DNA of 64,000 nucleotides from assembly GCA_965221125.1 (NCBI GenBank), contig CBDCRW010000007.1, positions 64,001 through 128,000 on the forward strand, in the 5' to 3' direction. The DNA comes from Alphaproteobacteria bacterium (GTDB lineage: Bacteria > Pseudomonadota > Alphaproteobacteria > UBA828). The stretch's first letter is position 1, and each line of letters opens with the position of its first letter. This document shows positions 1,259 through 28,002 of the stretch, piece after piece. The translations under genes were made by a program, and so were the position numbers. Below the pieces are notes generated by a model, which was not told where the DNA came from, searched no databases, and saw nothing but the letters and a program-made list of their open reading frames with translations.

Positions 1259-1560
1259 GCTCCGCGTTCATCATACCTTCGTTCGCCGGGTGGCGCAGTC
1301 ACCGGGGGCCTGAGCAGCCGTGCGCCGCCTCGCCAAGAACAGCCCGTCCAGGTCCTGTCCTCACGGCCATCACCCCCCTGTCACCCGAGGACCGAATCCC
1401 GGCCTCCGGCGGCAAATTCGGGGTGGGCGAAATCGGCCGAATTTACCGTCATCACTTCGGTAATCCCCGACATCAAACCCCAGCGTATTGGATCGTACAT
1501 CTGACATATCGTAGAGGCATGTGCGCGGATCGTCAACCCACTGTGACAACAACAGTTATC

Positions 1561-1600
1561 GTACTCCTACGTAGCTCTGCGTAGGTCTGCGTAGGTCTGA
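1561..1600 (+). repeat. 10-bp tandem repeat (GTAGGTCTGC-like, 4 degenerate units) upstream of lipoprotein 1
   Basis: gtactcctac gtagctctgc gtaggtctgc gtaggtctga. Confidence 0.6.
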
Positions 1601-1639
1601 CGGCGAAAGTGGGGAAAACGCTACACCGTACTTTTACAA

Positions 1640-1750
1640 GAGGAGAGCCTCGAAGCCATGAAGAAGACGAAGCTGACTCGCAGCTTGCTGGCGGCGTTCT
1701 CGATCGTCGCCCTCACGGCCGTCATGTACGGCTGCACCCACAGCAGTGAC
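1640..1750 (+). repeat. Inverted repeat copy A (RBS plus signal peptide/lipobox of lipoprotein 1)
   Basis: Matches the reverse complement of 6611-6721 with 11 mismatches in 111 bp; 30-bp identical core at 1654-1683. Confidence 0.9.
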
Positions 1751-3172
1751 AATCCGCCGGCGACGGAGATGGAACAGACGCCGGCCGAGCAGATTGCCGC
1801 GCTTCAGGCGCAGATCAATACCCTGCGGGCGGAACTTGGGCTGGATCCGATCGACATCGACGACCTGACCGGCAGCGTGGCTACCCTCACGCAGCAGGTG
1901 GCCGATCTTCAGAAGCAGATCGACGACGCGCAGGACGCCGAGGACAAGGCTGCCGCTGCGGCTGCCGCCAAGGACGCTGTGGCGTTGTTCGACGGTATCA
2001 CCGAAACCACCAGTGACCTGAGTGTTGCAGTCAGCGCTGTTACCGACAAACACGGCGGTGGCATGGCTTCGCTCACGGCCACGGCCTTGGTTCCCGGTAT
2101 CGCTGGTGACGACACGGTGAAATCCGCTGAGCCCATGCTGGGCATGTGGCAGGGCACGATGCTCACCGATTCCGTTCCCGCCATTCCTAGCACCGCCACC
2201 AATGCGGGCACCAGCAGCACCGTGGTCGTCTACACGGACATCGCGGCACCGAAAGCGGTCCCCTTTGGCGACGTGCACACGCTCGACGCGAACGGGAACT
2301 TTGCAATTGTCGCTGCTGCCGACGCAAACCCTCACGTAGGGCTGATTTCTGCGTCCGCGTTCGAGCACACCGGCCGAATGACTCATGATCCCGATGAGGG
2401 CGACGCCAATGAGACTATCCGCGTCAGGGGCATGTTCAACGGGGCGGCGGGTGAATACCGTTGCGCTGAGGGCGGCACGACGGGCACGTGCGCGTCCATA
2501 GAGTCGTCAGCTGGTGTCAGGCTCGTGGGCACGTGGGTCTTCGATCCCGATTCCGGCGCCATGGCCATGATGGTCGACCCATCCTTCGCCTATTTCGGCT
2601 GGTGGCTGAACAAGGGCGGCACTGCAGGTGTCGAGGCTGGCGTGTTCCACGGCGTAACGGACGGTACCGGAGACGACGAGTTGCTCGGTACGGTCACTGA
2701 GGCCGACTTTACCGCGTTGGGTGGCACGGCCACTTATAGTGGTTCAGCGGCTGGCAAGTACGCTCTGAAGCCGAGCCTCTCCGCCGCCTCCGGTGGCCAC
2801 TGGACGGCCGATGCGACCCTGACCGCCGACTTCGGGAGCGAGACTGCTAACGGAATGATCTCCGGCATGGTCGAAAACTTCATGGCCGGCGGCGAGATGA
2901 TGGACTGGAGCGTCTCCCTTGGCGAGACGTCCTTTACTGACGCGACGGGTGCGTTCGACAGCACTGTTGACACTGCTGGCTCCGAGGTTGCCGATGACGA
3001 TGTGGTCTGGACCATCGGCGGGGTTGCCGGAGCGGAATCCGGGTCATGGTCGGGCGGTCTCCGCGCGGGAGGCGACAACAATGTGCCGACACTGGCCACG
3101 GGCGTGTTCTCCGCAACCCACGGCACAGTCGGCCACATCATGGGCGCGTTCGGCGCACACCTCGACGAGTAG
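1658..3172 (+). CDS. Surface lipoprotein 1, TbpB/HpuA-like C-terminal beta-barrel (putative Slam cargo)
   Basis: Lipoprotein signal MKKTKLTRSLL...MYGC, coiled-coil N-terminus, acidic and Gly-rich, TATYSGSAAGKY, C-terminal GAFGA. Confidence 0.8.
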   Translation: MKKTKLTRSLLAAFSIVALTAVMYGCTHSSDNPPATEMEQTPAEQIAALQAQINTLRAELGLDPIDIDDLTGSVATLTQQVADLQKQIDDAQDAEDKAAAAAAAKDAVALFDGITETTSDLSVAVSAVTDKHGGGMASLTATALVPGIAGDDTVKSAEPMLGMWQGTMLTDSVPAIPSTATNAGTSSTVVVYTDIAAPKAVPFGDVHTLDANGNFAIVAAADANPHVGLISASAFEHTGRMTHDPDEGDANETIRVRGMFNGAAGEYRCAEGGTTGTCASIESSAGVRLVGTWVFDPDSGAMAMMVDPSFAYFGWWLNKGGTAGVEAGVFHGVTDGTGDDELLGTVTEADFTALGGTATYSGSAAGKYALKPSLSAASGGHWTADATLTADFGSETANGMISGMVENFMAGGEMMDWSVSLGETSFTDATGAFDSTVDTAGSEVADDDVVWTIGGVAGAESGSWSGGLRAGGDNNVPTLATGVFSATHGTVGHIMGAFGAHLDE

Positions 3173-3193
3173 CCACACTTCGAACTTGTTGCT

Positions 3194-3223
3194 GGGCGGC
3201 GGCCTTCGGTCGCCGCCCTTTTT
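3194..3223 (+). terminator. Rho-independent terminator of lipoprotein 1
   Basis: gggcggcggcc-ttcg-gtcgccgccc hairpin followed by a T tract. Confidence 0.85.
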
Positions 3224-3313
3224 CTTGCTCTGTCCGCCGGGCCACAGTCCCCCCGTCCGTCCTCGTTTCCCTTTCCCGTCCCGCTCCACGCTTAAGGCCC
3301 GGCGAGCGCACCC

Positions 3314-3949
3314 CTACCGATGTCGCGGCTGCGGCAGGCCCGCCAGCGACTCCAACGACCGCACCAGCCGCACCAGCTCGAACTGCCGGCCGATGCCCTG
3401 CTTGGCAAAAATGTTCTTCATGTGCCAGCGGATCGTGTTCTCCGTGCGCCCGCTCGCCCGCGCGATGTCGCGCACGGTTTTGCCCTCGGCCAGCCACACC
3501 GCCACGCGGCTCTCCATCGGCGTGAGACCGAAGCTCGCCGCCACGAGCGCCGGATCGATCCGCGTCCGGCTTGTCGGGTCGATCACCAGCACGAGCGCGG
3601 CGACGCGGTGCGCGCGCATGTCCGTGCCCCCTTCGTCCACTGGGCTCACGTGCAGTACGAGCCCCGGCAGGTCGAGCGTGCGCCTCACCATCATCGAGCC
3701 GCCGGCGCCCTGGCCGCCGCAGCACGGCAGCGCACGCGCCAGCAGCGCCTGAAGCGCGACGTCGTCCGCCGGCGCGCGGGCGTGGAGGGAGCCGCCTCGG
3801 TCGGACAGGCCGTCGCCCCGTCGCAGCAGGTCGCTGGCGTGGTCGCTCGCCGCGACGACGCGGCCGCGCCGGTCCAGCTGGATCACGCCGGACCGGGTGC
3901 CGCCGAGCAGCACGGCCGGGATGCGCTCGAGCGCGTCCCGTCGGCTCAC
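3314..3949 (-). CDS. LuxR-family HTH regulator (PAS-like plus HTH) with internal deletion of the N-terminal sensor region
   Basis: C-terminal GLTPMESRVAVWLAEGKTVRDIA...TIRWHMKNIFAK; GTG start MSRRDALERI matches the paralog at 17380. Confidence 0.85.
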   Translation of the reverse strand: MSRRDALERIPAVLLGGTRSGVIQLDRRGRVVAASDHASDLLRRGDGLSDRGGSLHARAPADDVALQALLARALPCCGGQGAGGSMMVRRTLDLPGLVLHVSPVDEGGTDMRAHRVAALVLVIDPTSRTRIDPALVAASFGLTPMESRVAVWLAEGKTVRDIARASGRTENTIRWHMKNIFAKQGIGRQFELVRLVRSLESLAGLPQPRHR

Positions 3950-17379: not shown

Positions 17380-18531
17380 ATGAGTCGGCAGGACGCATTC
17401 GATCGGATCGTGGCGGCGCTGCACGACGCCGCGTTCGACGATGCCCGGTGGCTCGCGGCATCCGCCCTGATCGACGACGCCTGCCGAATGAAGGGCAACG
17501 GGCTGGTGCACGGTGAGGGCCACACCCACGACGACATCGAAGTCTTCCTTGCGCGGCTCTGCCACCGCGGGGAACGGCGCGACGACCTGGAACGCGAATA
17601 CTTCGACATGTACCACCATGTGGATGAACGGCTGCCGCGCCTCAGGCAGCTCCCCGACCGCCGGCTCGTCCACGTGCGCTCCCTCTACACGGAGCAGGAG
17701 CTGAAGACATCGCCCACGTACAACGAGTGCCTGCTCCACGCCGAAGCGCAGAACGGCCTCAACCTGCGCATGGACGGACCGCACGGCTCGCGCATCGTCT
17801 GGCTGACCGCGGACCCTGTCGGCGCGGACGAATGGTCGTCCGATCAGACCGAGATGCTCGACCGTCTGATGCCGCATGTTCGCCAGTACGCGAGCGTGCG
17901 GCAGGTGTTGTCGGATGCAGGCGCGCTCGGCTCGTCGCTGGCCTCGCTGCTCGACAACACCGGGGCGGGGATCATCCACCTCGACCGGCGCGGCCGGATC
18001 GTCGCGGCGAACGACCGGGCCGGCGCGCTGCTGCGGCGGGGCTGCGGGCTGTCGGACACGGGCGGCTACCTGCAGGCCCGCCTGCCGCCGGACAATGCGC
18101 GCCTTCAGACGCTGCTGGCGCGCGCGCTGCCGCCGTTCGGCGCCCAGGGCGCCAGCGGGTCGATGACGCTGAGGCAGACGCCCGGCCAGCAGCGGCTCGT
18201 GCTGCACGTGAGCCCGGTGGCCGACCGGGACCTGGATTTCCGCACCCGCCGCGTCGCCGCGCTCGCGCTGGTCGTCGAGCCGGGGCGCCGGATGCGCATC
18301 GACCGGGGCCTGGTGGCGGCGATCCTGGGCCTCACGCCGTCGGAGACCGAGGTGGCGGTGCTGCTGGCCGAGGGCCACACCGTCAGCGATATCGCGCGGG
18401 CGACGGAGCGCAGGGAGAGCACGGTCCGCTGGCACATCAAGCACATCTTCAACAAGCACGGCTTCAATCGGCAATTGGAGCTGGTGCAACTGGTGCTGTC
18501 CCTGGCCACCATTCCGGAGTCGGGGCGCTGA
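17380..18531 (+). CDS. LuxR-family transcriptional regulator (sensor plus PAS-like plus HTH)
   Basis: GLTPSETEVAVLLAEGHTVSDIA...TVRWHIKHIFNK; divergent from slam. Confidence 0.88.
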   Translation: MSRQDAFDRIVAALHDAAFDDARWLAASALIDDACRMKGNGLVHGEGHTHDDIEVFLARLCHRGERRDDLEREYFDMYHHVDERLPRLRQLPDRRLVHVRSLYTEQELKTSPTYNECLLHAEAQNGLNLRMDGPHGSRIVWLTADPVGADEWSSDQTEMLDRLMPHVRQYASVRQVLSDAGALGSSLASLLDNTGAGIIHLDRRGRIVAANDRAGALLRRGCGLSDTGGYLQARLPPDNARLQTLLARALPPFGAQGASGSMTLRQTPGQQRLVLHVSPVADRDLDFRTRRVAALALVVEPGRRMRIDRGLVAAILGLTPSETEVAVLLAEGHTVSDIARATERRESTVRWHIKHIFNKHGFNRQLELVQLVLSLATIPESGR

Positions 18532-19035
18532 AGCCGTCGAGGAAATGCCGGCAGGTGCCGGGCACTTCAGCCGTCAATTTTCGCTCGGCAGCGGCGGCGG
18601 CATCCGCAGTTATTGATGGCCGCCGGCGGCAGAGTTTTCGGCCTTGTTCCGGACGCGGAATCGCGTTCGCGACCGCACAGTTTCCGCGCCGCATCGCCGC
18701 GGCCAGGCGCGCCACGTGCTCACGACCGGGCCGCTTGTCTCCCGCGCACGTGCGGACCCCGCCTATGGGGGCTTTACGCGCTCGGCACCACGACCTATGG
18801 TGGGAGACACAGGGCGAACACGCCAGGAAATCGATGGCAGCGGCCGGCCGTCGCCCTGATTGTTGCGCCTGTATCGAGAGCCAGGAGCCTGCCCGGTGGG
18901 CCGACGATCCGCAGCGCGTCTACGCCTTCGGCACGCCGCCGTGAGCCGCGCAGTTTGCGACCGCCGGGCGGCGCGGCCGCGCAATCGCCCGGATACGGAC
19001 GGCCCGCGCGGCGTCATCGGGCAAGGCCCCGGCGC

Positions 19036-20670
19036 ATGAACAGGCTTTACTACGGCGACTGCCTGGCGGTGATGGAGGAAATGCCGCCCGGCAGCGTCGA
19101 CCTGATCTACCTCGATCCGCCCTTCAACTCGAGCCGCGACTACAACGCGATCTACACGGACGAGACCGGCCGCCCCCTGCCGACGCAGATCGAGGCGTTC
19201 TGCGACACCTGGATCCTCGACGAGGACCGCGAACGCGCGATCCGCCAGATGCCGATCCTCATGCGCGAAGCCGGCATCGACGACGAGGTCGCGGAGTTCT
19301 GGCGCCTCTGGGTCAAGGCGCTGCGCAAGACGAACCCGCGCATGCTGGCCTATCTCTCCTACATGGTGCAGCGGCTGCTCCCCATGCGCGGGCTGCTGAA
19401 GGCGACCGGCTCCATCTACCTGCACTGCGACCCGACCGCCAGCCATTACATAAAGATCATGATGGACGCCATATTCGGGCACGAAAACTTCAGAAACGAG
19501 ATTACGTGGCAGCGCACGGAAAGTCACAACACGGCCGATCGCTACGGAAATATTGCCGACATACTGTTGTATTACGCAAAGTCCAGCCAAGCCATATGGA
19601 ACCCGCAGTATCAGGACTACGGCGACGCGCAGTTGAGCCGCTTCCGCCACATGGACGGCGACGGCCGCCGCTACAAGCTGGAGAACCTCACGGCCCCGCG
19701 GCCGAACTCGAATTCCGGCAAGTTCAGCTGGCGGGGCACGCTGCCGGGGCCCACGCGCGGGTGGGGCTACAACGTCGAGCAACTGGAGGCATGGTGGCAC
19801 GAGGGGCGCATCAGGACGAAAGCCGACGGCACGCCCCGGACCGACGGACTGAAGGTCTACCTGGACGAGACGCAGGGCAAACCGCTGCAGAACATATGGA
19901 CCGACATTTCCCGAATCCCCAATACGTCGTCGGAGCGGATGGGCTACGCAACGCAAAAGCCCTTGGCGCTGCTGGAGCGCGTCATCATGGCGAGTTCGGA
20001 ACCCGGAGATCTGGTCTTCGACCCGTTCTGCGGCTGCGCCACGACCATCGAAGCCGCGCACAGGCTGGGGCGGCGATGGATCGGCATCGACATCGCGATC
20101 CACGCAATAAAGCGCGTCGCAAAGGTGCGCCTGCAGGAGCGACTTAGGCTGGTCGAAGGCAGCGATTTCGAGATCAAGGGCATGCCGCGCGACATGGAAG
20201 GCGCGCGCGATCTTTGGAAGCACGACAAGTACCACTTTCAGAAGTGGGCCGTCGAACAGGTGGACGGATTTGTCACCGCGCGAAAGAGCGGCGACGGCGG
20301 CATAGACGGCCGCCTGTACTTCGCCATGCCGCAGGAAGATGCGTGGGAACGCGACCCGCTCCGTTCCATGGTGATCGAGGTGAAGGGCGGCACTAATGTC
20401 GGCATCGATGTCGTCCGCAATTTGCGCGGCATTCTGGAGCGCGAGGACGCGGAAATGGCGGGGCTGATCGTGCTGGAAGAACCTGGTCACAAGAAGCGCG
20501 CGAGCTTCGGCCGCGAGCTGGCATTCGCCGGCGACTTGACGGTGCACGGGACGACATACCCCCGCATGCAGCTTCTCACGGTCTCGGAGATTCTGGCCGG
20601 CAAGCGCTTCACGACGCCGAGCGCGGTGGGGCGCGGCTCCCGGCAGCAACCGCTCGCCCTGGAGCGCTAA
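19036..20670 (+). CDS. N6A/N4C DNA methyltransferase (beta order) fused to a C-terminal Mrr-like PD-(D/E)xK endonuclease
   Basis: DLIYLDPPFN, YATQKPLALLER, FDPFCGCATT; C-terminal DGGIDG...IEVKGG. Confidence 0.88.
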   Translation: MNRLYYGDCLAVMEEMPPGSVDLIYLDPPFNSSRDYNAIYTDETGRPLPTQIEAFCDTWILDEDRERAIRQMPILMREAGIDDEVAEFWRLWVKALRKTNPRMLAYLSYMVQRLLPMRGLLKATGSIYLHCDPTASHYIKIMMDAIFGHENFRNEITWQRTESHNTADRYGNIADILLYYAKSSQAIWNPQYQDYGDAQLSRFRHMDGDGRRYKLENLTAPRPNSNSGKFSWRGTLPGPTRGWGYNVEQLEAWWHEGRIRTKADGTPRTDGLKVYLDETQGKPLQNIWTDISRIPNTSSERMGYATQKPLALLERVIMASSEPGDLVFDPFCGCATTIEAAHRLGRRWIGIDIAIHAIKRVAKVRLQERLRLVEGSDFEIKGMPRDMEGARDLWKHDKYHFQKWAVEQVDGFVTARKSGDGGIDGRLYFAMPQEDAWERDPLRSMVIEVKGGTNVGIDVVRNLRGILEREDAEMAGLIVLEEPGHKKRASFGRELAFAGDLTVHGTTYPRMQLLTVSEILAGKRFTTPSAVGRGSRQQPLALER

Positions 20671-20983
20671 CCCGCAGGCTGAGCGCGCGGCGCAAACGAT
20701 CTGCCGCGCGCCGGACCCCGATGCACGATGCGTCGCGTGGGCCGGAGGCGTCCCCATCCGCGAATCCCCCGGTCGCGTGGCGGATTCAAGCCTGAAAGCC
20801 GGCGTGTCACGGGAATATTTCCCCGTCGTCGTCGTTTGGCGGGGCATTTCTCCTTGACGGCCGGGCCTGTGAGCGATAGGGAACGAACCGTTTGGTCCAT
20901 TCATGGGCGAGACGCAAGGCATCTGCATTGCGCGCACCGGCACCGCCCACCGTGCCCTGCGTGAGAGACGGACCCGCTTGGGC

Positions 20984-21328
20984 ACCGTAACGGCGGTAGC
21001 CTGCCCGCTCTCTCGCCCGCGCCCCGCGCTCGCACCCCGGATCGAGGACGGCAAAGTGAGATACGGCAACGAACTTTTTTTGGGGTTTTTGCCGAGATAA
21101 GCCGAGACAAGCCGAGACAAGCCGAGACAAGGTGAGACAAGGTGAGACGGCACATCGCGGTCCACAGGCGCCCGGCCGCGCCACCGCGCTGCGCGCCTCT
21201 CCGTGCCTGTCGGCCGGACAGCGCCGCGCAGACCATGACCGTGGCGAGAAATGCGGGCCGGTCTCATGCCGCCATCCTGCCGCGAACTCCCCGCCCCGTT
21301 CACCGCACCATGGTCCGGGTGCCGGGAG
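20984..21328 (+). repeat. Dispersed ~330-bp non-coding element copy 2, with a 10-bp array at 21091-21150
   Basis: gccgagataa (gccgagacaa)x3 ggtgagacaa ggtgagacgg; flanks shared with copy 1. Confidence 0.85.
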
Positions 21329-21355
21329 GGAGGCACCGCCCTTTCCACTGGCGTC

Positions 21356-21400
21356 CCCCCTCCGCCCTTCAAGGGGGGAGGGGGCCAGGGGGAGGTGGGT
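21356..21400. repeat. REP-like GC palindrome upstream of the DUF559 gene
   Basis: ccccctccgcccttcaaggggggagggggccagggggaggtgggt; near-identical inverted copy at ~53809-53851. Confidence 0.7.
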
Positions 21401-21415
21401 GGTAAAATCCAGCGC

Positions 21416-21853
21416 ATGGTCAAACCGAGGACGCACCGCGCCCGAGGCTTGCGCAAGGACGCCACGGCGGCCGAGCGTCTCCTGTGGCGGGCCTTGCGGG
21501 ATGCGGCGCTCCCGGTGAGGATTCGCCGCCAGCACCCCATCGGGCGCTACATCGCGGACTTCGCCATTCCCGCGCGCAAGCTCGTCATCGAGATCGACGG
21601 CGGCCAGCACGTCACCGCCGCGCGCCGGGATGCCGCCCGGACGGGCAACCTGGAGGCGCGGGGCTGGCGCGTTATCCGTTTCTGGAACAACGACGTGACG
21701 GGCAACCTGGCCGGTGTGCTCGAGACCATCGTTGCTGAAATAGAAAGGAGATTATATACGAAGGTCACAATTCATCTCGTCTCGGACGAACGGCAATCGA
21801 AGATATCCTCGGGATTGACGCCCGGCCCCCTTTTGGTACACTCCCGGGCGTGA
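21416..21853 (+). CDS. DUF559 (Vsr-like) endonuclease; C-terminus replaced by IS1595 sequence after 21746
   Basis: RARGLRKDATAAERLLW...RRQHPIGRYIADF...IEIDGGQH...GWRVIRFWNNDV. Confidence 0.85.
   Translation: MVKPRTHRARGLRKDATAAERLLWRALRDAALPVRIRRQHPIGRYIADFAIPARKLVIEIDGGQHVTAARRDAARTGNLEARGWRVIRFWNNDVTGNLAGVLETIVAEIERRLYTKVTIHLVSDERQSKISSGLTPGPLLVHSRA
21815..21842 (+). promoter_or_regulatory. Sigma70-like promoter (TTGACG-N16-TACACT) inside the IS left end
   Basis: Consensus-like boxes; resembles the promoter at 22111. Confidence 0.5.
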
Positions 21854-21973
21854 TCATTGGAGTGGGTGGCGACGTGCTCGTTGACCGGTCGACGGGTTCC
21901 CTCGCCTTCGGAGGATCTCCCGTCCAACGCTGGTCCTCACCCTCCCCATCCCGTTCGTAACCTAAGTAGATAA

Positions 21974-22049
21974 TGGAGACCCGAGCCGGATTCGAACCGG
22001 CGTAAACGCCATTTCCAGGGACGCGCCTAACCACTCGAGCCATCGGGTC
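21974..22049 (-). tRNA. Atypical tRNA or tRNA-like RNA: GGA anticodon on a tRNA-Cys-like short-variable-loop body with encoded CCA
   Basis: GACCCGA-TG-GCTCGAGTGGTTAGGC-G-CGTCC-CTGGAAA-TGGCG-TTTAC-GCCGG-TTCGAAT-CCGGC-TCGGGTC-T-CCA (76 nt). Confidence 0.75.
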
Positions 22050-22110
22050 TCCATCTATTTATCGGCGTTGGCACCCTCCCCTAAGTATTTGTTTTAGAAG
22101 AAAGTTCGTC

Positions 22111-22139
22111 TTGACGCCCGTCTCCAGACGTGTTACACT
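22111..22139 (+). promoter_or_regulatory. Sigma70 promoter of the IS1595 transposase (TTGACG-N17-TACACT)
   Basis: Canonical spacing; followed by an internal IR copy ggtcacaattca (22142-22153) and an AGGAGG RBS. Confidence 0.7.
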
Positions 22140-22165
22140 TCGGTCACAATTCAGGAGGATCGGGG

Positions 22166-23146
22166 ATGGGCAAGAGTTCACCGGGCAAGGGCGACCGCGA
22201 GGGCATCGGCCTCGTCACCCTGCTGCGGATGTTCCCCGACGACGAGGCAGCGCGGCGGTGGTTCGAGGAGCGGGTGTGGCCGGACGGCCCCCACTGCCCC
22301 CACTGCGGCAGCCTCAACGTCCAGGCCGGCATCAAGCACAAGACGATGACGCACCGGTGCCGCGACTGCTCCAACCGCCCGATGTTCAGCCTGCGGACCG
22401 GCACCGTCATGCAGGGCTCGAAGCTCGGCTACCAGACCTGGGCCATCGCGGTCTACCTGCTGACGACGAGCCTCAAGGGCACCAGCAGCATGAAGCTGCA
22501 TCGGGATCTTGAGATCACCCAAAAATCTGCTTGGCATCTGATGCATAGGCTCCGGAAATCGTTCGAGAACGACCCCGAGCCGTTCAAGGGTCCGGTGGAG
22601 GCGGACGAGACGTACATCGGCGGCAAGCGTAAGAATATGCACGCCAAGAAACGGCGGGAATTGAAGGGCCGGGGTGCCGTGGGTAAGACCGCCGTGGTCG
22701 GTGTTCGGGACCGTGACACCAAGCGCGTGAGCGCCGGGGTGGTGGAGGCGACCGATGGTCCCACGTTGCAGGGATTCGTGGCCGAGCGGGCCGCCGAGGG
22801 GACCACGGTCTATACCGACGAGGCGCGGGCGTACCAGGGCATGTCGTTCGCCCACGAGGCAGTTGCCCACAGCGTCGGGGAGTACGTCCGGGACCAGGCT
22901 CACACCAACGGGATGGAGAGCTTCTGGTCGATGCTCAAGCGCGGGTACGTCGGCACCTACCACAAGCTCAGCCCGAAGCACCTCGACCGGTACGTGACCG
23001 AGTTCGCGGGACGGCACAACGCCCGCGCCGCCGACACCCTCGATCAGATGACCGGCATCGTGACGGGAATGGTGGGGAAGCGGCTCCGGTACGCGGACCT
23101 GATCGCGGACAACGGACTGGAGTCGGGGGCGAAGCCGACTAAGTAG
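22166..23146 (+). CDS. IS1595-family transposase
   Basis: Zn finger CPHC...CRDC, QKSAWHLMHRLR, VEADETYIGG, VYTDE, HTNGMESFW. Confidence 0.95.
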   Translation: MGKSSPGKGDREGIGLVTLLRMFPDDEAARRWFEERVWPDGPHCPHCGSLNVQAGIKHKTMTHRCRDCSNRPMFSLRTGTVMQGSKLGYQTWAIAVYLLTTSLKGTSSMKLHRDLEITQKSAWHLMHRLRKSFENDPEPFKGPVEADETYIGGKRKNMHAKKRRELKGRGAVGKTAVVGVRDRDTKRVSAGVVEATDGPTLQGFVAERAAEGTTVYTDEARAYQGMSFAHEAVAHSVGEYVRDQAHTNGMESFWSMLKRGYVGTYHKLSPKHLDRYVTEFAGRHNARAADTLDQMTGIVTGMVGKRLRYADLIADNGLESGAKPTK

Positions 23147-23151
23147 GATTC

Positions 23152-23367
23152 ATGGAAGAGAACGCCTTTTATCCCAAGACCGTGGACAAGCCTAGTCCTG
23201 CTAATTATCCGACCGAACAAGATTTCGCGCTTGCTCACAGAGAGTGGTTTGAATGTACCGTGCTTCCTGAGCAACCTGATTGGTGTAATTGGTGTCAGTC
23301 TGTGACGATGGATATTTCAACCGGGAAATTTCATCACAAAGATGGGTGTCCAAACTCAAGAGATTAG
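23152..23367 (+). CDS. Hypothetical small AT-rich passenger protein (CxxC...HxxxC)
   Basis: 71-aa ORF immediately after the transposase. Confidence 0.4.
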   Translation: MEENAFYPKTVDKPSPANYPTEQDFALAHREWFECTVLPEQPDWCNWCQSVTMDISTGKFHHKDGCPNSRD

Positions 23368-23506
23368 TCTTGACGTCGTCCTTGTGACTACCCCACTGGA
23401 TCAGTAGGCGCGCCACAGCTTTGGTGAATACCTCGACCGACTTTACGTCATACGACTCCCGTTCACCCATGCCATCTCCTCCTGTTTTGATGGGTTGATC
23501 TGATAC

Positions 23507-24052
23507 TCACCGCAGCATCTGCTGCATCAGCCGCTGCAGGTTTACATGAGAGCGGTTGGTGCTGCCAGCGGGGCTCTCCCGCTGGTTCTTGTACGCGACC
23601 CACCGTCCCGAGCGATTTTGGCAGGCGAAGGCGTAGTTGAGGCGGTAGTTCTTCGCCCCCGCGGGCCACGAGCGGTAGCGGTAGTTCCAGCAGTACCCTC
23701 CCCGGGGCGTTCGGTAGAATCCCCCCACGATGCCGTCGACCTCCCAGCGGTACGGACCGTCATGCACCACGACGGGGAAGGGGACCACGACCTTGCGCGG
23801 GTCGGTGCCGGGGCCTCCCCAGCCGACGAGGTGCTCCTTGAAGCCGGTCTCGCCATCCCGGCTGTACCCCAGGAATCGCATCTGGCGGGACCGGTGACTC
23901 TCGCCCTGCCGCTCGTGGACCGTCCGAGCGGACGCGCCGGAAACGGGGGCGGGGGTGAACTGTGCCCCGCCGGCGACCACCCGAAGGTCCGGGGTGCAGG
24001 CGGCAACGGAGACGACCCCTGCCAGTAGGGTTATCGCGACGAGCCCTCTCAT
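23507..24052 (-). CDS. Putative lipoprotein passenger; C-terminus resembles the 17-kDa surface antigen-type domain
   Basis: Lipobox VAAC; GGYCWNY...ACQNRSGRW. Confidence 0.55.
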   Translation of the reverse strand: MRGLVAITLLAGVVSVAACTPDLRVVAGGAQFTPAPVSGASARTVHERQGESHRSRQMRFLGYSRDGETGFKEHLVGWGGPGTDPRKVVVPFPVVVHDGPYRWEVDGIVGGFYRTPRGGYCWNYRYRSWPAGAKNYRLNYAFACQNRSGRWVAYKNQRESPAGSTNRSHVNLQRLMQQMLR

Positions 24053-24054
24053 GG

Positions 24055-24546
24055 CTAAAACGCGATCGTGCTCTTGGTCCCGGTGCAGTGCCGGGTGTAG
24101 AGAATCTCCAGCGCGCGGCGCAAACGGTCCGGGTCCAAGTTGTACATCGGCAGGGTGACCCGCTTGTGGCTCCCCATCGAGACCCCGGATATGACGAGGC
24201 TGAGGTAGAGCAGATCGTTCTGCGGCTCGATGTCCGCCACGACATCGTCCCCGGCGAGAGTCATGACGAGGACCTGCCCGTTGTCGGGGAAGTAGCGGTA
24301 CTCGATCTCGATGAACTCGGGGTCGACGTTATTCCAGTAGATTCGGACGTAGCCGCCCTTGCTGTCGTCCATGCCGGAGACGCACGCGCTCCGGTCGTAG
24401 ATGCGGGCGGTGGCGACCCCGTTGGCCTCCCGGAGGGGGTCCCCCGTCGTCAGGTAGTTGGTAAGCTGCTGGAAGGCGTCTCCCTGCCCCGCCTCGGCCC
24501 CGGTTGCCACCATGACTGCGGCGAGCAGTATCATCGACCATCTCAT
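24055..24546 (-). CDS. Secreted hypothetical passenger protein
   Basis: Signal peptide MRWSMILLAAVMVATGAEA; closely spaced with the downstream lipoprotein gene. Confidence 0.6.
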   Translation of the reverse strand: MRWSMILLAAVMVATGAEAGQGDAFQQLTNYLTTGDPLREANGVATARIYDRSACVSGMDDSKGGYVRIYWNNVDPEFIEIEYRYFPDNGQVLVMTLAGDDVVADIEPQNDLLYLSLVISGVSMGSHKRVTLPMYNLDPDRLRRALEILYTRHCTGTKSTIAF

Positions 24547-24802
24547 CCCACACCCCACTCCGTCGCCCCGGTCCCGGCGGGCGCCGGGCCGTTGCAAGCA
24601 ACACACGGGTTAGCGTGGGAAGCCCCGCCTATTCGTCCGGGACGAGGGAGCTACCCCCGACCCTGCACGGACTCTTGTATTCGAGCGGGCGACCCGACTC
24701 AGCGGGTACCCGTGTCTTGCTTGCGGAAACGAGCGTAGGGGAGAGGACGCCGGACGGTCAACCCGACTTGACTACCGGGCGGACGGCGACCATCAAGAGA
24801 AC

Positions 24803-24997
24803 GTGGATCAGGAACCCCGCGAGGACCCGAAACCCCCCTCCTGCCTCACGTGCCAGCACTGGTGGCCGCGGGCGGAGGGCGGGGGAACGTGCGGCAAGGT
24901 GATCGGGACCCAGAACGTCACCGAGGCGTACGACTGGTGCCGTGAGCACCAACCCCGGGGCCTGCGCGGGGTGGCCCACAAACAAACGACGTGGTAG
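24803..24997 (+). CDS. Small Cys-rich hypothetical protein
   Basis: CLTCQHW...C...WC pattern, 64 aa. Confidence 0.4.
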   Translation: MDQEPREDPKPPSCLTCQHWWPRAEGGGTCGKVIGTQNVTEAYDWCREHQPRGLRGVAHKQTTW

Positions 24998-25010
24998 GAG
25001 CGAAACCGCC

Positions 25011-25172
25011 GTGAAGGACGAGTCGAAGCCTCCCGTCGTCCGAATCAAACCCTCCAGCTATCAGCCGCCCAAGGCCGAACTGGAAGAGGACGTACGCATC
25101 GACGCCACCCCGGAGGAACTGGCGCGTGCGGTGCTGCGTCAGGTGAGAGTGGTCAAGGACCCGGAGGCGTGA
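25011..25172 (+). CDS. Small hypothetical protein at the IS right end
   Basis: AGGAG RBS, GTG start, MKDESKPPVVRIKPSSYQP...ATPEELARAVL. Confidence 0.5.
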   Translation: MKDESKPPVVRIKPSSYQPPKAELEEDVRIDATPEELARAVLRQVRVVKDPEA

Positions 25173-25204
25173 CCGGGCAATTGTGATCTAGGTATATAAT
25201 CTCC

Positions 25205-25479
25205 TTCCCGAAACAGGCGGCGACTGGACGGTCCATCCGGACGAGCACCGCACGCTGAGGGGCGTGCTGGAGAGCTGGGCAGCGCGGGCCGGCTGGACAC
25301 TGGTGTGGAAGGCGCGCGAGGACTACGGCCTGGGCGCGGCGGCGGTGTTCGAGGGCGGCTTCCTGGAGGCCGCCGACGTGCTGCTGAGCGGCCCGGCGAC
25401 GAGGCGGACCCTGGACGTCCGCGCCTATGCGGCAAACCGCCACCTGGTGGTGGACGACGCCGATGGAGCGGGCTGGTGA
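25205..25479 (+). pseudogene. 3' fragment of a TcpQ/PilL-like domain gene, truncated by IS1595
   Basis: LESWAARAGWTLVW...DY...FEGGFLEA; no start codon before the IS end; paralog of 28326-28838. Confidence 0.65.
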
Positions 25480-26015
25480 GTGCGGCGCGCATCATGGCTC
25501 TGCTGTGTTCGGTCGTTTTCGCGAGCCTGGCCTCGGCCCCACTCGCGGGGTGCATGTCGTGGGTGCCTGCGTCGGTGTCGGCGATCTCGCTCTTGGGCGA
25601 CGAACCCGATCCTGCGGAGACGCGTCTTGTCGAGGCGGTCGAGCGCGCCGAGCGGGCGCTGGCCTTGCTCGCCTGCGCGGTGCCGGCGCTGGATCCGGAG
25701 TCGGGGCTGCCGGACGCGCGTTCCGTGCCCGCCGCGTTGCGCACCCCTGTGACGCTGGACTGGACGGGGCCGGTGGAGGCGCTGGCGGACGAGCTGGCGC
25801 GGCGCGCGGGCTACCGTTTCGCGGAAGCCGGCCGTCCGCCGGCGCGGCCGCTGATCGTCTCCGTCGAGGCGGACGCGCAACCGCTGATCGCAGTGCTCCG
25901 CGACGCGGGCCTGCGTGCGGGCGCTGCCGCCACGCTCACCGTCGATGCGGAACGGCGGACGGTTCTTCTCGACTGGACCGAACAGCCGGCACTCACGCCG
26001 GAGAGGGCCTGGTGA
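25476..26015 (+). CDS. dotD: DotD/TraH-family lipoprotein
   Basis: Lipobox LAGC; VTLDWTGPVEAL...AGYRF...VLRDAG. Confidence 0.8.
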   Translation: MSAARIMALLCSVVFASLASAPLAGCMSWVPASVSAISLLGDEPDPAETRLVEAVERAERALALLACAVPALDPESGLPDARSVPAALRTPVTLDWTGPVEALADELARRAGYRFAEAGRPPARPLIVSVEADAQPLIAVLRDAGLRAGAAATLTVDAERRTVLLDWTEQPALTPERAW

Positions 26016-26842
26016 TGCGGGGCCTGCGCGTCCTGGCCGTCGCGGCGCTCGGCATCGCGCTGGCACCCCTCCCCGTTCCGGCAACGGAACCGCCGCCGAG
26101 CCTGGCGGCGCTGCAGGCGTTGTCACCGGAGAGCGGACCGGATGTGCCCTTCGCGGCGGAGAAACGCGCGTCGGCCGTCCGCCTGGCCGCGCTGGGGTTC
26201 GGCGCGCGCGCGGGCCTCGCGCGGCGCACGTGGGAGATCGCCGCCATGCTGGACCGGCACGGCCCGAAACTCTCCGCGATCTACCGCTTCGGCGATCTCG
26301 TGCTGCGCGACGACGGGTTCACGGTGCTGCCGCCGGTCGTCGCCGAGACCCGCAGGGCCTTCCGGTTGGAACCCGCCGGCACGCGCGCGGCGAGCGCCCG
26401 GCGGGTGCTCAGGATTCTGGAGCCGGAGCGGCTGGTGAGCGCGGCGCCGGACTGGCGCGACTGGCTGGAGCGTTCCTGGCGCCCGGCCCAGCCGCCCGCG
26501 TCAGTGCTGTTTCCGCGCGACGACCGGGAGGAGGCCCGCTGGCGGCGTCTGCTGACCGAAGGCTGGGCCAAGGGCGTGGCCCTGGCCGACGACATCTTTG
26601 CCGCCGACCTCGACCGCCTCAGCCGCACCTTCGAAGGCGTGGTGCTCTGGCACCGGCTCAGCCGCACCGGGATGCTGACCACGCCCGGCATCGAGGTGGA
26701 ACGGGCCGGCGTTTCCGGCCACGAGAGGCTGATGCGGATCGGCGCGGCCTCGGCCCACATCGCCCGCGTCGCCCGCTTCGAACTGGACGCCGGGCGCTGG
26801 GCGCCGCCGCCGAGACCCTCGGGCCGCAGGGGCAGCCGATGA
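26015..26842 (+). CDS. dotC: DotC/TraI-family protein
   Basis: AALGFGARAGL...YRF...VLPPVV...PDWRDWL...W..GV..A; dotDCB gene order. Confidence 0.8.
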   Translation: MRGLRVLAVAALGIALAPLPVPATEPPPSLAALQALSPESGPDVPFAAEKRASAVRLAALGFGARAGLARRTWEIAAMLDRHGPKLSAIYRFGDLVLRDDGFTVLPPVVAETRRAFRLEPAGTRAASARRVLRILEPERLVSAAPDWRDWLERSWRPAQPPASVLFPRDDREEARWRRLLTEGWAKGVALADDIFAADLDRLSRTFEGVVLWHRLSRTGMLTTPGIEVERAGVSGHERLMRIGAASAHIARVARFELDAGRWAPPPRPSGRRGSR

Positions 26843-27978
26843 GCGCGCATCCCCATGAGCGGTGGCCCGAAGCCGCGCACGGCTTCCCGGCGGACAGGCT
26901 CGACGAGTTCCTGCTGTGGGCGGCCGACCGCGGCGCTTCCGACATCGCCTTCCAGACCGGCTCCCCGGCCTTCGTCGAGATCGACGGCGGTTTACAGCGC
27001 GCCACGGCCGCCGCGCTGGACGGCGTGGTCATGGGCAGGCTTTGCGAGCGCCTCTACGACGCAACCGGCGAAGGCATCCTGCGCTCGGGCCGCGCCATCG
27101 ACTGCTCGCACTCGATCACGCTGGCACGTGGGCTCTCGCAACGCTTCCGCTGCAATCTCGCACCGGTCCAGGGCGCTGCAGGCTTCGCGGTCAACATCAC
27201 GCTCCGCGTGCTGCCCGGCAAGCCCCCCACGTTCGCGGAACTGGGGGTCGAGGACGGGATCGTGCGCTCGTGGGAGCTGTGCAAGGGGCTCGTGCTGGTC
27301 ACGGGCGTGCCGGGCTCGGGCAAGTCCACCCTGCTCGCAGCCGGCACGCGCCACCTGCTGGAGCGGGGCGCGGGCCGCATACAGTCCTACGAGGCGCCGA
27401 TCGAGTACGTCTTCGACGGGATTGCCGCTGACGCGGCGCTGATGTCGTCCGCCGAGATACCCCGCCACTTCCCGAGCTTCGCGGACGGCCTGCGCTCCAG
27501 CCTCAGGCGGCGGCCTTCGGCCGTGATCGTGGGCGAGGCGCGCGACCGGGAGACCGTCGAGGCGGTGGTGAAGGCGGCGGACTACGGCATCGCCGTGTTC
27601 TCGACCGCCCACACCATCGGGGTGGCGGCGACGGTGCGCCGCATGCTGGCCGAGTTCCCCGCGCACGAGCGGGCGGAACGGGGCGCCGCGCTGATCGACG
27701 CCATGACGCTGGTGGTGACCCAGGTGCTGCTGCCCAACCCCAAGGGAGGAAGGACAGCGCTCCGCGAATGGCTCGCCTTCGACGCCGGCCTGAAGGCGGA
27801 GCTGCTGGAGAGCCCGCAGGCCAGCTGGCCCGCGAGGATCGCAGCGGCCCTGGCCGCCACCGGCAACGAGCTCGCGGCCGCCGCCCGCAAGGCGCACGCC
27901 CGGGGCCTGATCGTCGACGAAGGACTGCAACGGATCCTCGCCGGCGGCGGTGTACCGAAGCCGAACGAAGGAGATTGA
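26839..27978 (+). CDS. dotB: DotB/TraJ PilT-like ATPase
   Basis: ASDIAFQTG, GVPGSGKST, YEAPIEY, LRRRP..IVGEARD, STAH. Confidence 0.88.
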   Translation: MSAHPHERWPEAAHGFPADRLDEFLLWAADRGASDIAFQTGSPAFVEIDGGLQRATAAALDGVVMGRLCERLYDATGEGILRSGRAIDCSHSITLARGLSQRFRCNLAPVQGAAGFAVNITLRVLPGKPPTFAELGVEDGIVRSWELCKGLVLVTGVPGSGKSTLLAAGTRHLLERGAGRIQSYEAPIEYVFDGIAADAALMSSAEIPRHFPSFADGLRSSLRRRPSAVIVGEARDRETVEAVVKAADYGIAVFSTAHTIGVAATVRRMLAEFPAHERAERGAALIDAMTLVVTQVLLPNPKGGRTALREWLAFDAGLKAELLESPQASWPARIAAALAATGNELAAAARKAHARGLIVDEGLQRILAGGGVPKPNEGD

Positions 27979-28002
27979 GGCGCATGAAGGGGAGATACCG
28001 CG

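Follow-up and report, generated by a model that had tools for sequence, protein, structure and literature searches.

IS1595-family transposons may spread tRNAs that misread the genetic code: a tRNA-Cys-type gene with a serine anticodon carried in a transposon slot

What might a transfer RNA (tRNA) gene do inside a small transposon when its body and its anticodon point to different amino acids? The question is raised by a locus of an alphaproteobacterium (GTDB group UBA828) in which a tRNA with a body of cysteine type and the serine anticodon GGA is carried by an element of the insertion sequence (IS) family IS1595. The window, that is, the whole stretch of DNA that was analysed, comprised 64,000 nucleotides (positions 64,001 to 128,000 of contig CBDCRW010000007.1, assembly GCA_965221125.1); coordinates given without a prefix refer to it, and G, C and L numbers are our own handles for genomes, contigs and loci. 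The host genome (4.58 Mb in 7 contigs, 69% G+C, with bacterial-type tRNAs) also contains an ordinary 88-nt tRNA-Ser(GGA) with G73 and an ordinary 74-nt tRNA-Cys(GCA). Judging from sequence comparison, we read the gene as an accessory tRNA under selection, derived from tRNA-Cys, carried as cargo in a slot of the IS1595 element and possibly decoding with a hybrid identity; to this statement as a whole we assign a probability of about 0.45.

The gene was called by ARAGORN at 21974-22049 on the minus strand as a 76-nt tRNA-Ser(GGA), and the Rfam tRNA model RF00005 matched 21977-22049 (-) over the full model length with 38.9 bits (E = 5.2e-06 for the 3 kb searched; the gathering score is 29 bits); it was also recovered with R1, a covariance model of our own that is described below. 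The minus-strand cloverleaf of the initial annotation could be read in the sequence in every part. Acceptor stem (7 bp) and T stem (5 bp) were free of mismatches, the T loop was TTCGAAT, and the anticodon loop CUGGAAA was a canonical loop of 7 nt with U33 and A37; a C31/U39 mismatch, a variable loop of 5 nt, U73 and an encoded CCA completed the structure. The universal U8, the GG of the D loop and U33 were intact. In the D stem, which was irregular, Infernal placed a bulge of one base and a G13/A22 mismatch, and the same 13/22 mismatch was present in the host tRNA-Cys. As regards its class, the gene shared the anticodon GGA with tRNA-Ser but had neither the long variable arm nor G73, and it shared U73 with tRNA-Cys, the tRNA of its own genome to which its body was nearest, but not the anticodon GCA. 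Its 7/5 geometry differed from that of allo-tRNAs, in which the 12-bp branch is split 8/4 or 9/3.

The anticodon was no slip of the assembly, since an identical second copy of the tRNA was found at C5:3581-3656, independent Logan contigs from two runs of the source sample spanned 21745-23605 with 0 differences, and the same loop occurred in another species. Sequencing error and decay of a single copy, with which the initial annotation had reckoned, were thus excluded.

Among the host tRNAs, tRNA-Cys was the nearest to the GGA gene (59 of 76 positions identical, alignment score 34 vs. 23 for the next best), and along the T arm and the end of the variable loop 19 of 20 positions matched. GGA differs from GCA by a single change, C35G. 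R1, a Cys-type model built from three divergent and four canonical sequences, was run on 21 genomes of the genus. Canonical tRNA-Cys genes scored 98-101 bits in 20 of them (the exception was an assembly of 460 contigs), divergent Cys-type paralogues scored 84.1 (G004), 83 (the window and C5 copies, each), 80.4 (G019) and 75.4 bits (G008), and all remaining tRNAs reached 60.4 bits at most; over 23 genomes from other genera of the family, R1 gave no divergent paralogue at E ≤ 1e-12. None of the paralogues in the three further species of the genus (G019, G004 and G008) carried GCA, and C35 was kept in none of the four divergent paralogues, the anticodon being GGA in the window and in G019 and GGC in G004, with a 6-nt loop in G008. 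The corresponding loops were CUGGAAA in G019, as in the window, CCGGCAA in G004 and CUGAAA in G008. The G019 homologue was only 71% identical in DNA sequence, yet it had the same loop and also a pyrimidine/U mismatch at 31/39. U73 was present in all four divergent paralogues and in the canonical tRNA-Cys genes, and acceptor stems varied freely among the Cys-type paralogues. These comparisons indicated that the body of the tRNA descends from the genus's own tRNA-Cys, and that the Cys anticodon was lost through one change at position 35.

Evidence for selection on the fold came from a small alignment of seven related sequences (three divergent, four canonical), with a structure supplied by ourselves, in which standard pairs made up 95.7% of cells and changes on both sides occurred at 11 of 20 pairs. 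The observed pairing and both-sided changes were matched by 0 of 500 column shuffles, and pairing fell to 27-47% when partners were slid by 1-3 columns. The stems were thus kept through compensatory changes in diverged paralogues, which argues against a decaying pseudogene; the alternative of a decaying tRNA-Cys, entertained in the initial annotation, was disfavoured by four paralogues with such changes and by the retention of the universal tertiary bases. That a selected, transposon-borne, tRNA-shaped gene is present appears highly probable.

The gene was also distinguished by its 5' leader (22050-22055, -), which pairs with U73-CCA and the first bases of the trailer (21972-21977). The pairing of ATGGA with TCCAT, by which the initial annotation had extended the acceptor stem over the CCA, was confirmed: six consecutive pairs past the acceptor stem were counted by script, making 13 pairs. 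For the remaining 54 ARAGORN calls in this genome, the count was 0-4, or 0-3 where the acceptor stem had its full 7 bp. Between 4 and 8 extra pairs were counted for the G019 homologue, both tRNAs of the G004 element, the RNA of the G003 element and the G008 paralogue, with partner sequences that differed, that is, covaried. In all, the CCA end was sealed by the leader in six of the seven unusual RNAs examined, the exception being a tRNA of the own genome with anticodon AGG (two extra pairs). CCA was not encoded in G019, in G008 and in the G003 RNA. Covarying pairing of leader and CCA is a putative processing feature of which no description was found in the literature searched.

The carrier was delimited, by pattern search and direct reading of the ends, as an IS1595-family transposon ('transporter IS') of 3458 bp at 21747-25204 (+). 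Its left terminal inverted repeat (21747-21772, +) starts with GGAGATTATATAC, and an inverted copy of this 26-nt end forms the right one (25179-25204, -); a 13-nt end motif was present at both ends of both assembly copies, with 0 matches for the reversed control pattern. The transposase (326 amino acids with an N-terminal zinc ribbon; 22166-23146, +) matched DDE_Tnp_IS1595 (1.9e-40) and Zn_ribbon_IS1595 (1.3e-09) in Pfam and transpos_IS1595 in NCBIfam (183.4 bits, cut-off 75). A recoding of the zinc ribbon was considered and rejected, all four cysteines being specified by ordinary TGC codons. The element thus had the DDE domain and zinc ribbon, the inverted ends and the 8-bp target duplication of the IS1595 family, the duplication being seen in the second assembly copy and in sister elements; that the tRNA lies inside an IS1595 element, as first proposed, was borne out by the transposase domains and by the ends defined at 21747 and 25204.

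An identical copy of the element (100%) was found at C5:3354-6811, flanked on both sides by AATAGAAA as an 8-bp duplication; the window has only the left copy of this target site (21739-21746), and its right flank reads ttcccgaa. The assembly contains the element twice together with 3.35 kb of its left flank, window 18394-25204 being equal to C5:1-6811 at 100%, and C5 begins within the window's left flank (C5:1 = window 18394). Logan contigs of the source sample broke precisely at both element ends, and in run X4 the depth per contig, which is a rough guide only, was 78-103 inside the element vs. 51 and 43 in the flanks. These depths agree with two copies of the element but only one of its left flank, so that one assembly join is probably wrong, and it is probably the window's join that is the artefact. 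Sister elements with the same ends and their own 8-bp duplications were present in three other species of the genus, one in each: G014 (3982 bp), G004 (4995 bp) and G003 (4271 bp). In scans of metagenomes, neither a pattern of the conserved core nor one of the end motif had a match.

Within the element, the tRNA occupied a slot between the left end and the transposase gene, on the strand opposite to the transposase. Alignment of the four left arms revealed a conserved block that runs from GATAAATAG through the second of two cctaagta motifs, a promoter-like TTGACG-17-TACACT, the word GGTCACAATTCA and the ribosome-binding site to the transposase start. In the window, GATAAATAG is located at 22055-22063 (-); it was invariant in the four sister elements, ends 6 nt ahead of the first base of the tRNA on the RNA strand, and is the putative -10 element of a slot promoter. 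It is followed by a divergent control region (22078-22165, +), conserved in all four sister elements, which comprises the second cctaagta (22080-22087), TTGACG-17-TACACT before the transposase gene (22111-22139, +) and GGTCACAATTCA (22142-22153, +), a word resembling the inverted repeat, with the ribosome-binding site of the transposase gene in the same region. GGTCACAATTCA occurred on the plus strand at 21763 and at 22142 (2 matches vs. 0.06 expected; 0 of 100 shuffles reached 2). The initial annotation had placed the tRNA between an outer inverted repeat and an internal copy of it; both are present, but the element starts at 21747, and the internal copy at 22142 is part of the transposase control block. 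On the far side of the slot the arms shared another block, which was less well conserved, and a semi-conserved motif A(C/T)TTAG followed each slot RNA of the sisters as well as the G019 homologue; in the window this boundary is marked by the first cctaagta (21961-21968), which reads ACUUAG on the RNA strand 5-12 nt past the CCA. Both cctaagta repeats were thus where they had been reported. As a target duplication of a tRNA mini-element the pair was nevertheless rejected, the right copy being core in all four sisters and the left one semi-conserved; since the right copy belongs to the conserved core even of the sister without a tRNA, the pair is poor evidence for such a duplication. A promoter-like TTGACG-16-TACACT at 21815-21842 (+), a near-duplicate of the site before the transposase that runs antisense to the tRNA, was not conserved in the sisters.

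The slot held an irregular tRNA in three of the four sister elements, or two of the three besides that of the window. In G004 it contained a Cys-type tRNA with anticodon GGC, followed by a Val-type tRNA with GAC; in G003, a class-II RNA of 88 nt in which the D stem has 6 bp, the T stem has 4 bp and the anticodon is GCG (8/4 allo-type by inspection); and in G014, a non-tRNA sequence with two hairpins. The search of other IS1595 copies for the same RNA, which the initial annotation had recommended, thus returned the identical C5 copy and, in the sister slots, other irregular tRNAs. The G019 homologue was found outside any IS, at the junction of two gene neighbourhoods; it retained about 40 nt of the promoter-side block together with the 3' motif, and was preceded by GATAAATGG, the counterpart of GATAAATAG. 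In an empty-site comparison for this copy, its flanks lay apart in 20 other genomes of the genus and no insertion boundary could be defined.

Beyond the sisters, a protein search yielded 80 loci in other bacteria, mostly in uncultured marine and sponge-associated genomes. An end-finding script was applied to 63 of these, 17 further copies from the same records being left out, and inverted ends of the same type were found in 34 of the 63, with 25 left arms of 53-101 nt and nine long ones (one with a weak end match). Three of the nine long left arms contained tRNA or tRNA-like genes: a Leu-type body with anticodon AGA in L098, a Val CAC tRNA in L113, and in L111 two tRNA-like genes antisense to the transposase, which scored 25.8 and 26.7 bits with R1, one of them reaching 48.3 bits on the Rfam tRNA model. 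The layout of L111 was that of the window (outer end, tRNAs, a word resembling the inverted repeat, transposase). One element type, present in four copies (L055, L056, L058 and L059), had two tRNA-like genes in its right arm. At L048 and L102, the element is inserted some 105-120 nt downstream of an ordinary tRNA gene of the host (Val CAC in the former, Sec UCA in the latter), a hint that sites adjoining tRNA genes are preferred.

Several other unusual tRNA genes were observed in the course of the work. At L003 in the own genome, two mismatched tRNAs stand beside an IS1595-type transposase remnant (C7:563753-563843, -, and about C7:564632-564722, -): a Ser-type body with AGG, which reads a Pro codon, and a Sec/allo-type RNA with the loop GAC (Val), whose 52.9 bits on the Rfam tRNA-Sec model cannot separate Sec/allo-type from tRNA-Ser here, as canonical Ser tRNAs score 47-54 bits. 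The same genome has a tRNA-Ser(CGA)-like gene at C3:534997-535084 with a 6-nt anticodon loop, for which ARAGORN gives a 2-base anticodon. In L029 (G020), an 88-nt class-II tRNA (1165-1252, -; Ser-like, with G73) carries the Asn anticodon GUU and adjoins an IS1595-type transposase gene. The fourth Cys-type paralogue, with its 6-nt anticodon loop and without CCA, is located at L174 (G008:C7), 1501-1573 (+); about 620 nt from it lies an odd 82-nt tRNA-like gene (2194-2275, +; 38.9 bits, loop GUC), and no IS1595 transposase was seen within the 3 kb fetched around L174.

How could the tRNA of the window act? Seryl-tRNA synthetase (SerRS) needs a long variable arm, U73 and GCA are identity elements of tRNA-Cys, and cysteinyl-tRNA synthetase (CysRS) reads the anticodon. 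The short variable arm and U73 upheld the early view of a Cys-like body that is no SerRS substrate by the known rules; because of them SerRS should reject the tRNA, and charging by CysRS should be weak because C35 is changed. In the mechanism that we propose, the RNA would be transcribed from the conserved GATAAAT-type element and would have a hybrid identity, being ignored by SerRS and charged weakly by CysRS via U73. At the Ser codons UCC and UCU, it would then sit either Cys-charged at a low rate or uncharged, and the sealed acceptor end together with the weak anticodon stem would keep its output low or conditional. We hold only tentatively, at somewhat less than even odds, that the RNA takes part in decoding in this way.

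A number of observations weigh against this reading. The 38.9 bits of the tRNA on the Rfam model were well under the 60.9 bits of the host canonical tRNA-Cys, and the covariation described above was drawn from few and related sequences on a given structure. Neither a promoter on the strand of the tRNA nor a terminator was detected in a consensus scan, and for this reason the -10 assignment of GATAAATAG is one that we infer. Pairing of the leader with the CCA would hinder normal 5' and 3' maturation, and charging may be negligible because CysRS reads the anticodon. A tRNA is dispensable to the element, since the G014 slot holds a non-tRNA sequence and the tRNA-like genes of L111 scored low with R1. 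Finally, the anticodon stem was the weakest helix in the divergent paralogues, with pairs in 11 of 15 cells and one mismatch in each paralogue, whereas D and T stems paired in all cells; this agrees with selection that acts on the upper half of the RNA and not on decoding.

The gene might accordingly be read as a tRNA-shaped RNA that does not decode and of which the element or the host uses the fold itself; it may serve as a decoy for a tRNA-binding enzyme or toxin, as a stable module for processing or insulation by which the transposase gene is protected against transcription coming in from the left end, or as an uncharged A-site stress ligand. Acceptor, D and T helices kept beside a mismatched anticodon stem or an abnormal loop in each divergent paralogue would be expected of such an RNA, as would a CCA end that is sealed in six of seven cases and unencoded in G019, G008 and the G003 RNA, a slot that also accepts unrelated structured RNAs, including the non-tRNA of G014, and a promoter-like site (21815-21842) whose plus-strand transcripts would read antisense through the tRNA gene. 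We regard this as the main rival of the decoding reading, both having been among the alternatives of the initial annotation, and as less likely than not. Against it, the anticodon loop is a canonical one of 7 nt with U33 and A37 and the same GGA is found in two lineages that are 29% diverged. In addition, no toxin, nuclease or RNA-binding partner was recognisable among the passenger genes with Pfam, NCBIfam and PADLOC, and matches or complements to the anticodon arm within 18000-28000 were only chance ones of 8-10 nt. A comparison by eye of the anticodon loops with the four target duplications revealed no relation.

Two further explanations deny the gene a function as an RNA. One is that a host tRNA-Cys was captured by an IS that lands near tRNA genes and now drifts as a pseudogene, with a neutral change of anticodon. 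The position of L048 and L102 downstream of host tRNAs, the low R1 scores of the L111 genes, and the bulged D stem and low Rfam score of the window tRNA speak in its favour, but a drifting copy would hardly show both-sided changes at 11 of 20 pairs with 95.7% of cells still paired, intact U8, D-loop GG, U33 and TTCGAAT, the same GGA in a homologue of 71% identity, a leader and trailer that covary, and a conserved promoter-like block at the slot; we regard this explanation as improbable. The other, an attachment-site decoy whose tRNA-Cys-like 3' half attracts integrases that target tRNA-Cys, could draw on the 19 of 20 T-arm positions shared with the host tRNA-Cys. However, no integrase or integrated element abutted any copy examined, and the freely varying acceptor stems would destroy an attachment site spanning the 3' end, so that this idea, which had been put forward at the outset, is left without support and strikes us as most improbable. 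The choice between a decoding and a non-decoding RNA can be approached through the body of the tRNA: a Cys-type body is instructive since CysRS reads the anticodon, and charging would therefore separate selection to decode from selection for a tRNA look-alike.

Carried over to the family, the decoding reading leads to a broader proposal, in which IS1595 transporter ISs would be dedicated vehicles of an exchangeable tRNA cassette with a conserved, element-borne promoter. They would spread hybrid-identity tRNAs (here a Cys-type tRNA reading UCC/UCU) across genomes and phyla, as regulated mistranslators or uncharged A-site stress ligands, with the leader-CCA lock in place until processing. In this general form the proposal is speculative, and we think it decidedly unlikely to hold as it stands.

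Apart from the tRNA, the element carries about 2 kb of passenger DNA, and the passenger open reading frames (ORFs) of the window gave no match in Pfam, NCBIfam or PADLOC. The product of one passenger gene (24055-24534, -) is an orphan protein of 159 amino acids whose N terminus resembles a signal peptide and in which two cysteines are invariant; none of its seven relatives has a name, and the G014 element carries the gene too (74% DNA identity). A conserved protein of 53 amino acids is encoded inside the right end (25011-25172, +) and was kept in all four sister elements. It matched 71 clusters at E ≤ 0.01, none with a function, and was present in 29 of the 80 related loci, always on the transposase strand; judged by this distribution, its gene seems to belong to the core of this IS lineage. 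The G004 element (L034) contains, at 1297-1911 (+) and 2534-3703 (+), a candidate anti-phage protein (PADLOC PDC-S57, 242 bits; T5orf172 domain) and a nested IS5-type transposase gene, respectively. To the left of the window's element, an ORF for a DUF559 protein (Vsr-like endonuclease fold; 21251-21853, +) enters the left end, its last codons having been replaced by the insertion. A short repeat of about 75-80 nt, with dozens of copies in the genome at 80-94% identity, was found in 21072-21400; beside it, shortly before the DUF559 gene, a 10-bp unit is repeated in tandem about five times (21081-21148).

A second CysRS was considered as a dedicated synthetase for the divergent tRNAs. Full-length genes were present in G000, G019 and G018 and a partial one in G006 (four of the 21 genus genomes), the copy of the own genome being located at C5:240982-242361 (-), locus L146. 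This protein was 62-63% identical to the housekeeping CysRS and aligned end to end with CysRS of Escherichia coli (451 bits); the C-terminal residues that we take to contact the anticodon were unchanged except W432, which was replaced in both paralogues. Among its carriers the second CysRS was better conserved (93-96% identity) than their ordinary CysRS, which was 86-91% identical to that of G000. Its neighbours were ZnuA, two CobW/COG0523-type GTPases, a Fur-family regulator and a hexapeptide transferase. As a dedicated synthetase it was rejected, being absent from G004 and G008, which have divergent tRNAs, while two of the four carriers have no divergent Cys-type tRNA. Because of its place in a zinc-uptake cluster and because it does not track with these tRNAs, the second CysRS is probably a zinc-starvation paralogue.

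Nature offers few routes to altered decoding, and mismatched tRNAs are one of them. In the present case they travel in a small and precisely bounded transposon with a conserved slot and promoter-like block, whose sisters swap the tRNA in the slot, and if the RNAs are active, transposition alone could give a cell a new decoding rule or a trigger of translational stress. The bacterial cases of mismatched tRNAs known to us either lie on the chromosome and have a dedicated synthetase, or stand loosely 'near' mobile genes. In Streptomyces, tRNAProX is reportedly a mistranslating tRNA of hybrid identity that works with a dedicated synthetase, ProRSx. The tRNA of the window resembles it in combining, in a bacterium, the body of one amino acid with the anticodon of another; it differs in having no dedicated synthetase, the second CysRS standing in a zinc-uptake cluster. 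Most tRNAs found on phages, plasmids and integrative elements are canonical isoacceptors, and their carriers are large. Like those tRNAs, the window tRNA is an accessory tRNA on mobile DNA, but its vehicle is a transposon of 3.5 kb and the tRNA is mismatched.

In the accessible text of Mukai et al. (2017, PMC5389517), irregular tRNAs and allo-tRNAs with missense or nonsense anticodons are described as sporadic and as associated with mobile or toxin-antitoxin contexts; among the cases noted are an allo-tRNA pseudogene that overlaps an ORF related to transposons, and irregular tRNAs arranged in polycistrons. The present RNAs are like those described there in that body and anticodon disagree, and the G003 RNA, by our reading, shares the 8/4 form with a 6-bp D stem. 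The window tRNA, in contrast, has a 7/5 geometry and a body of Cys type, not of Ser/Sec type, and its place is a defined slot within an IS1595 transposon whose ends are known, in a genome of alphaproteobacterial type. Because its body is of Cys type, unlike the Ser/Sec-type irregular tRNAs, it would depend on a synthetase that reads the anticodon. IS1595 transporter ISs are known as carriers of passenger genes (Siguier, Gagnevin and Chandler 2009, as reported in the accessible text of PMC3129680), and the element of the window agrees with what is given there in its zinc-ribbon DDE transposase, terminal inverted repeats, 8-bp duplication and passengers inside the ends. No description of tRNA cargo in IS1595 elements was found in the literature searched, subscription papers being outside its scope. 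Thus, irregular/allo-tRNAs and transporter ISs are the nearest known systems, and the novelty lies in the body of Cys type, in a slot that is defined and in a leader-CCA lock that covaries.

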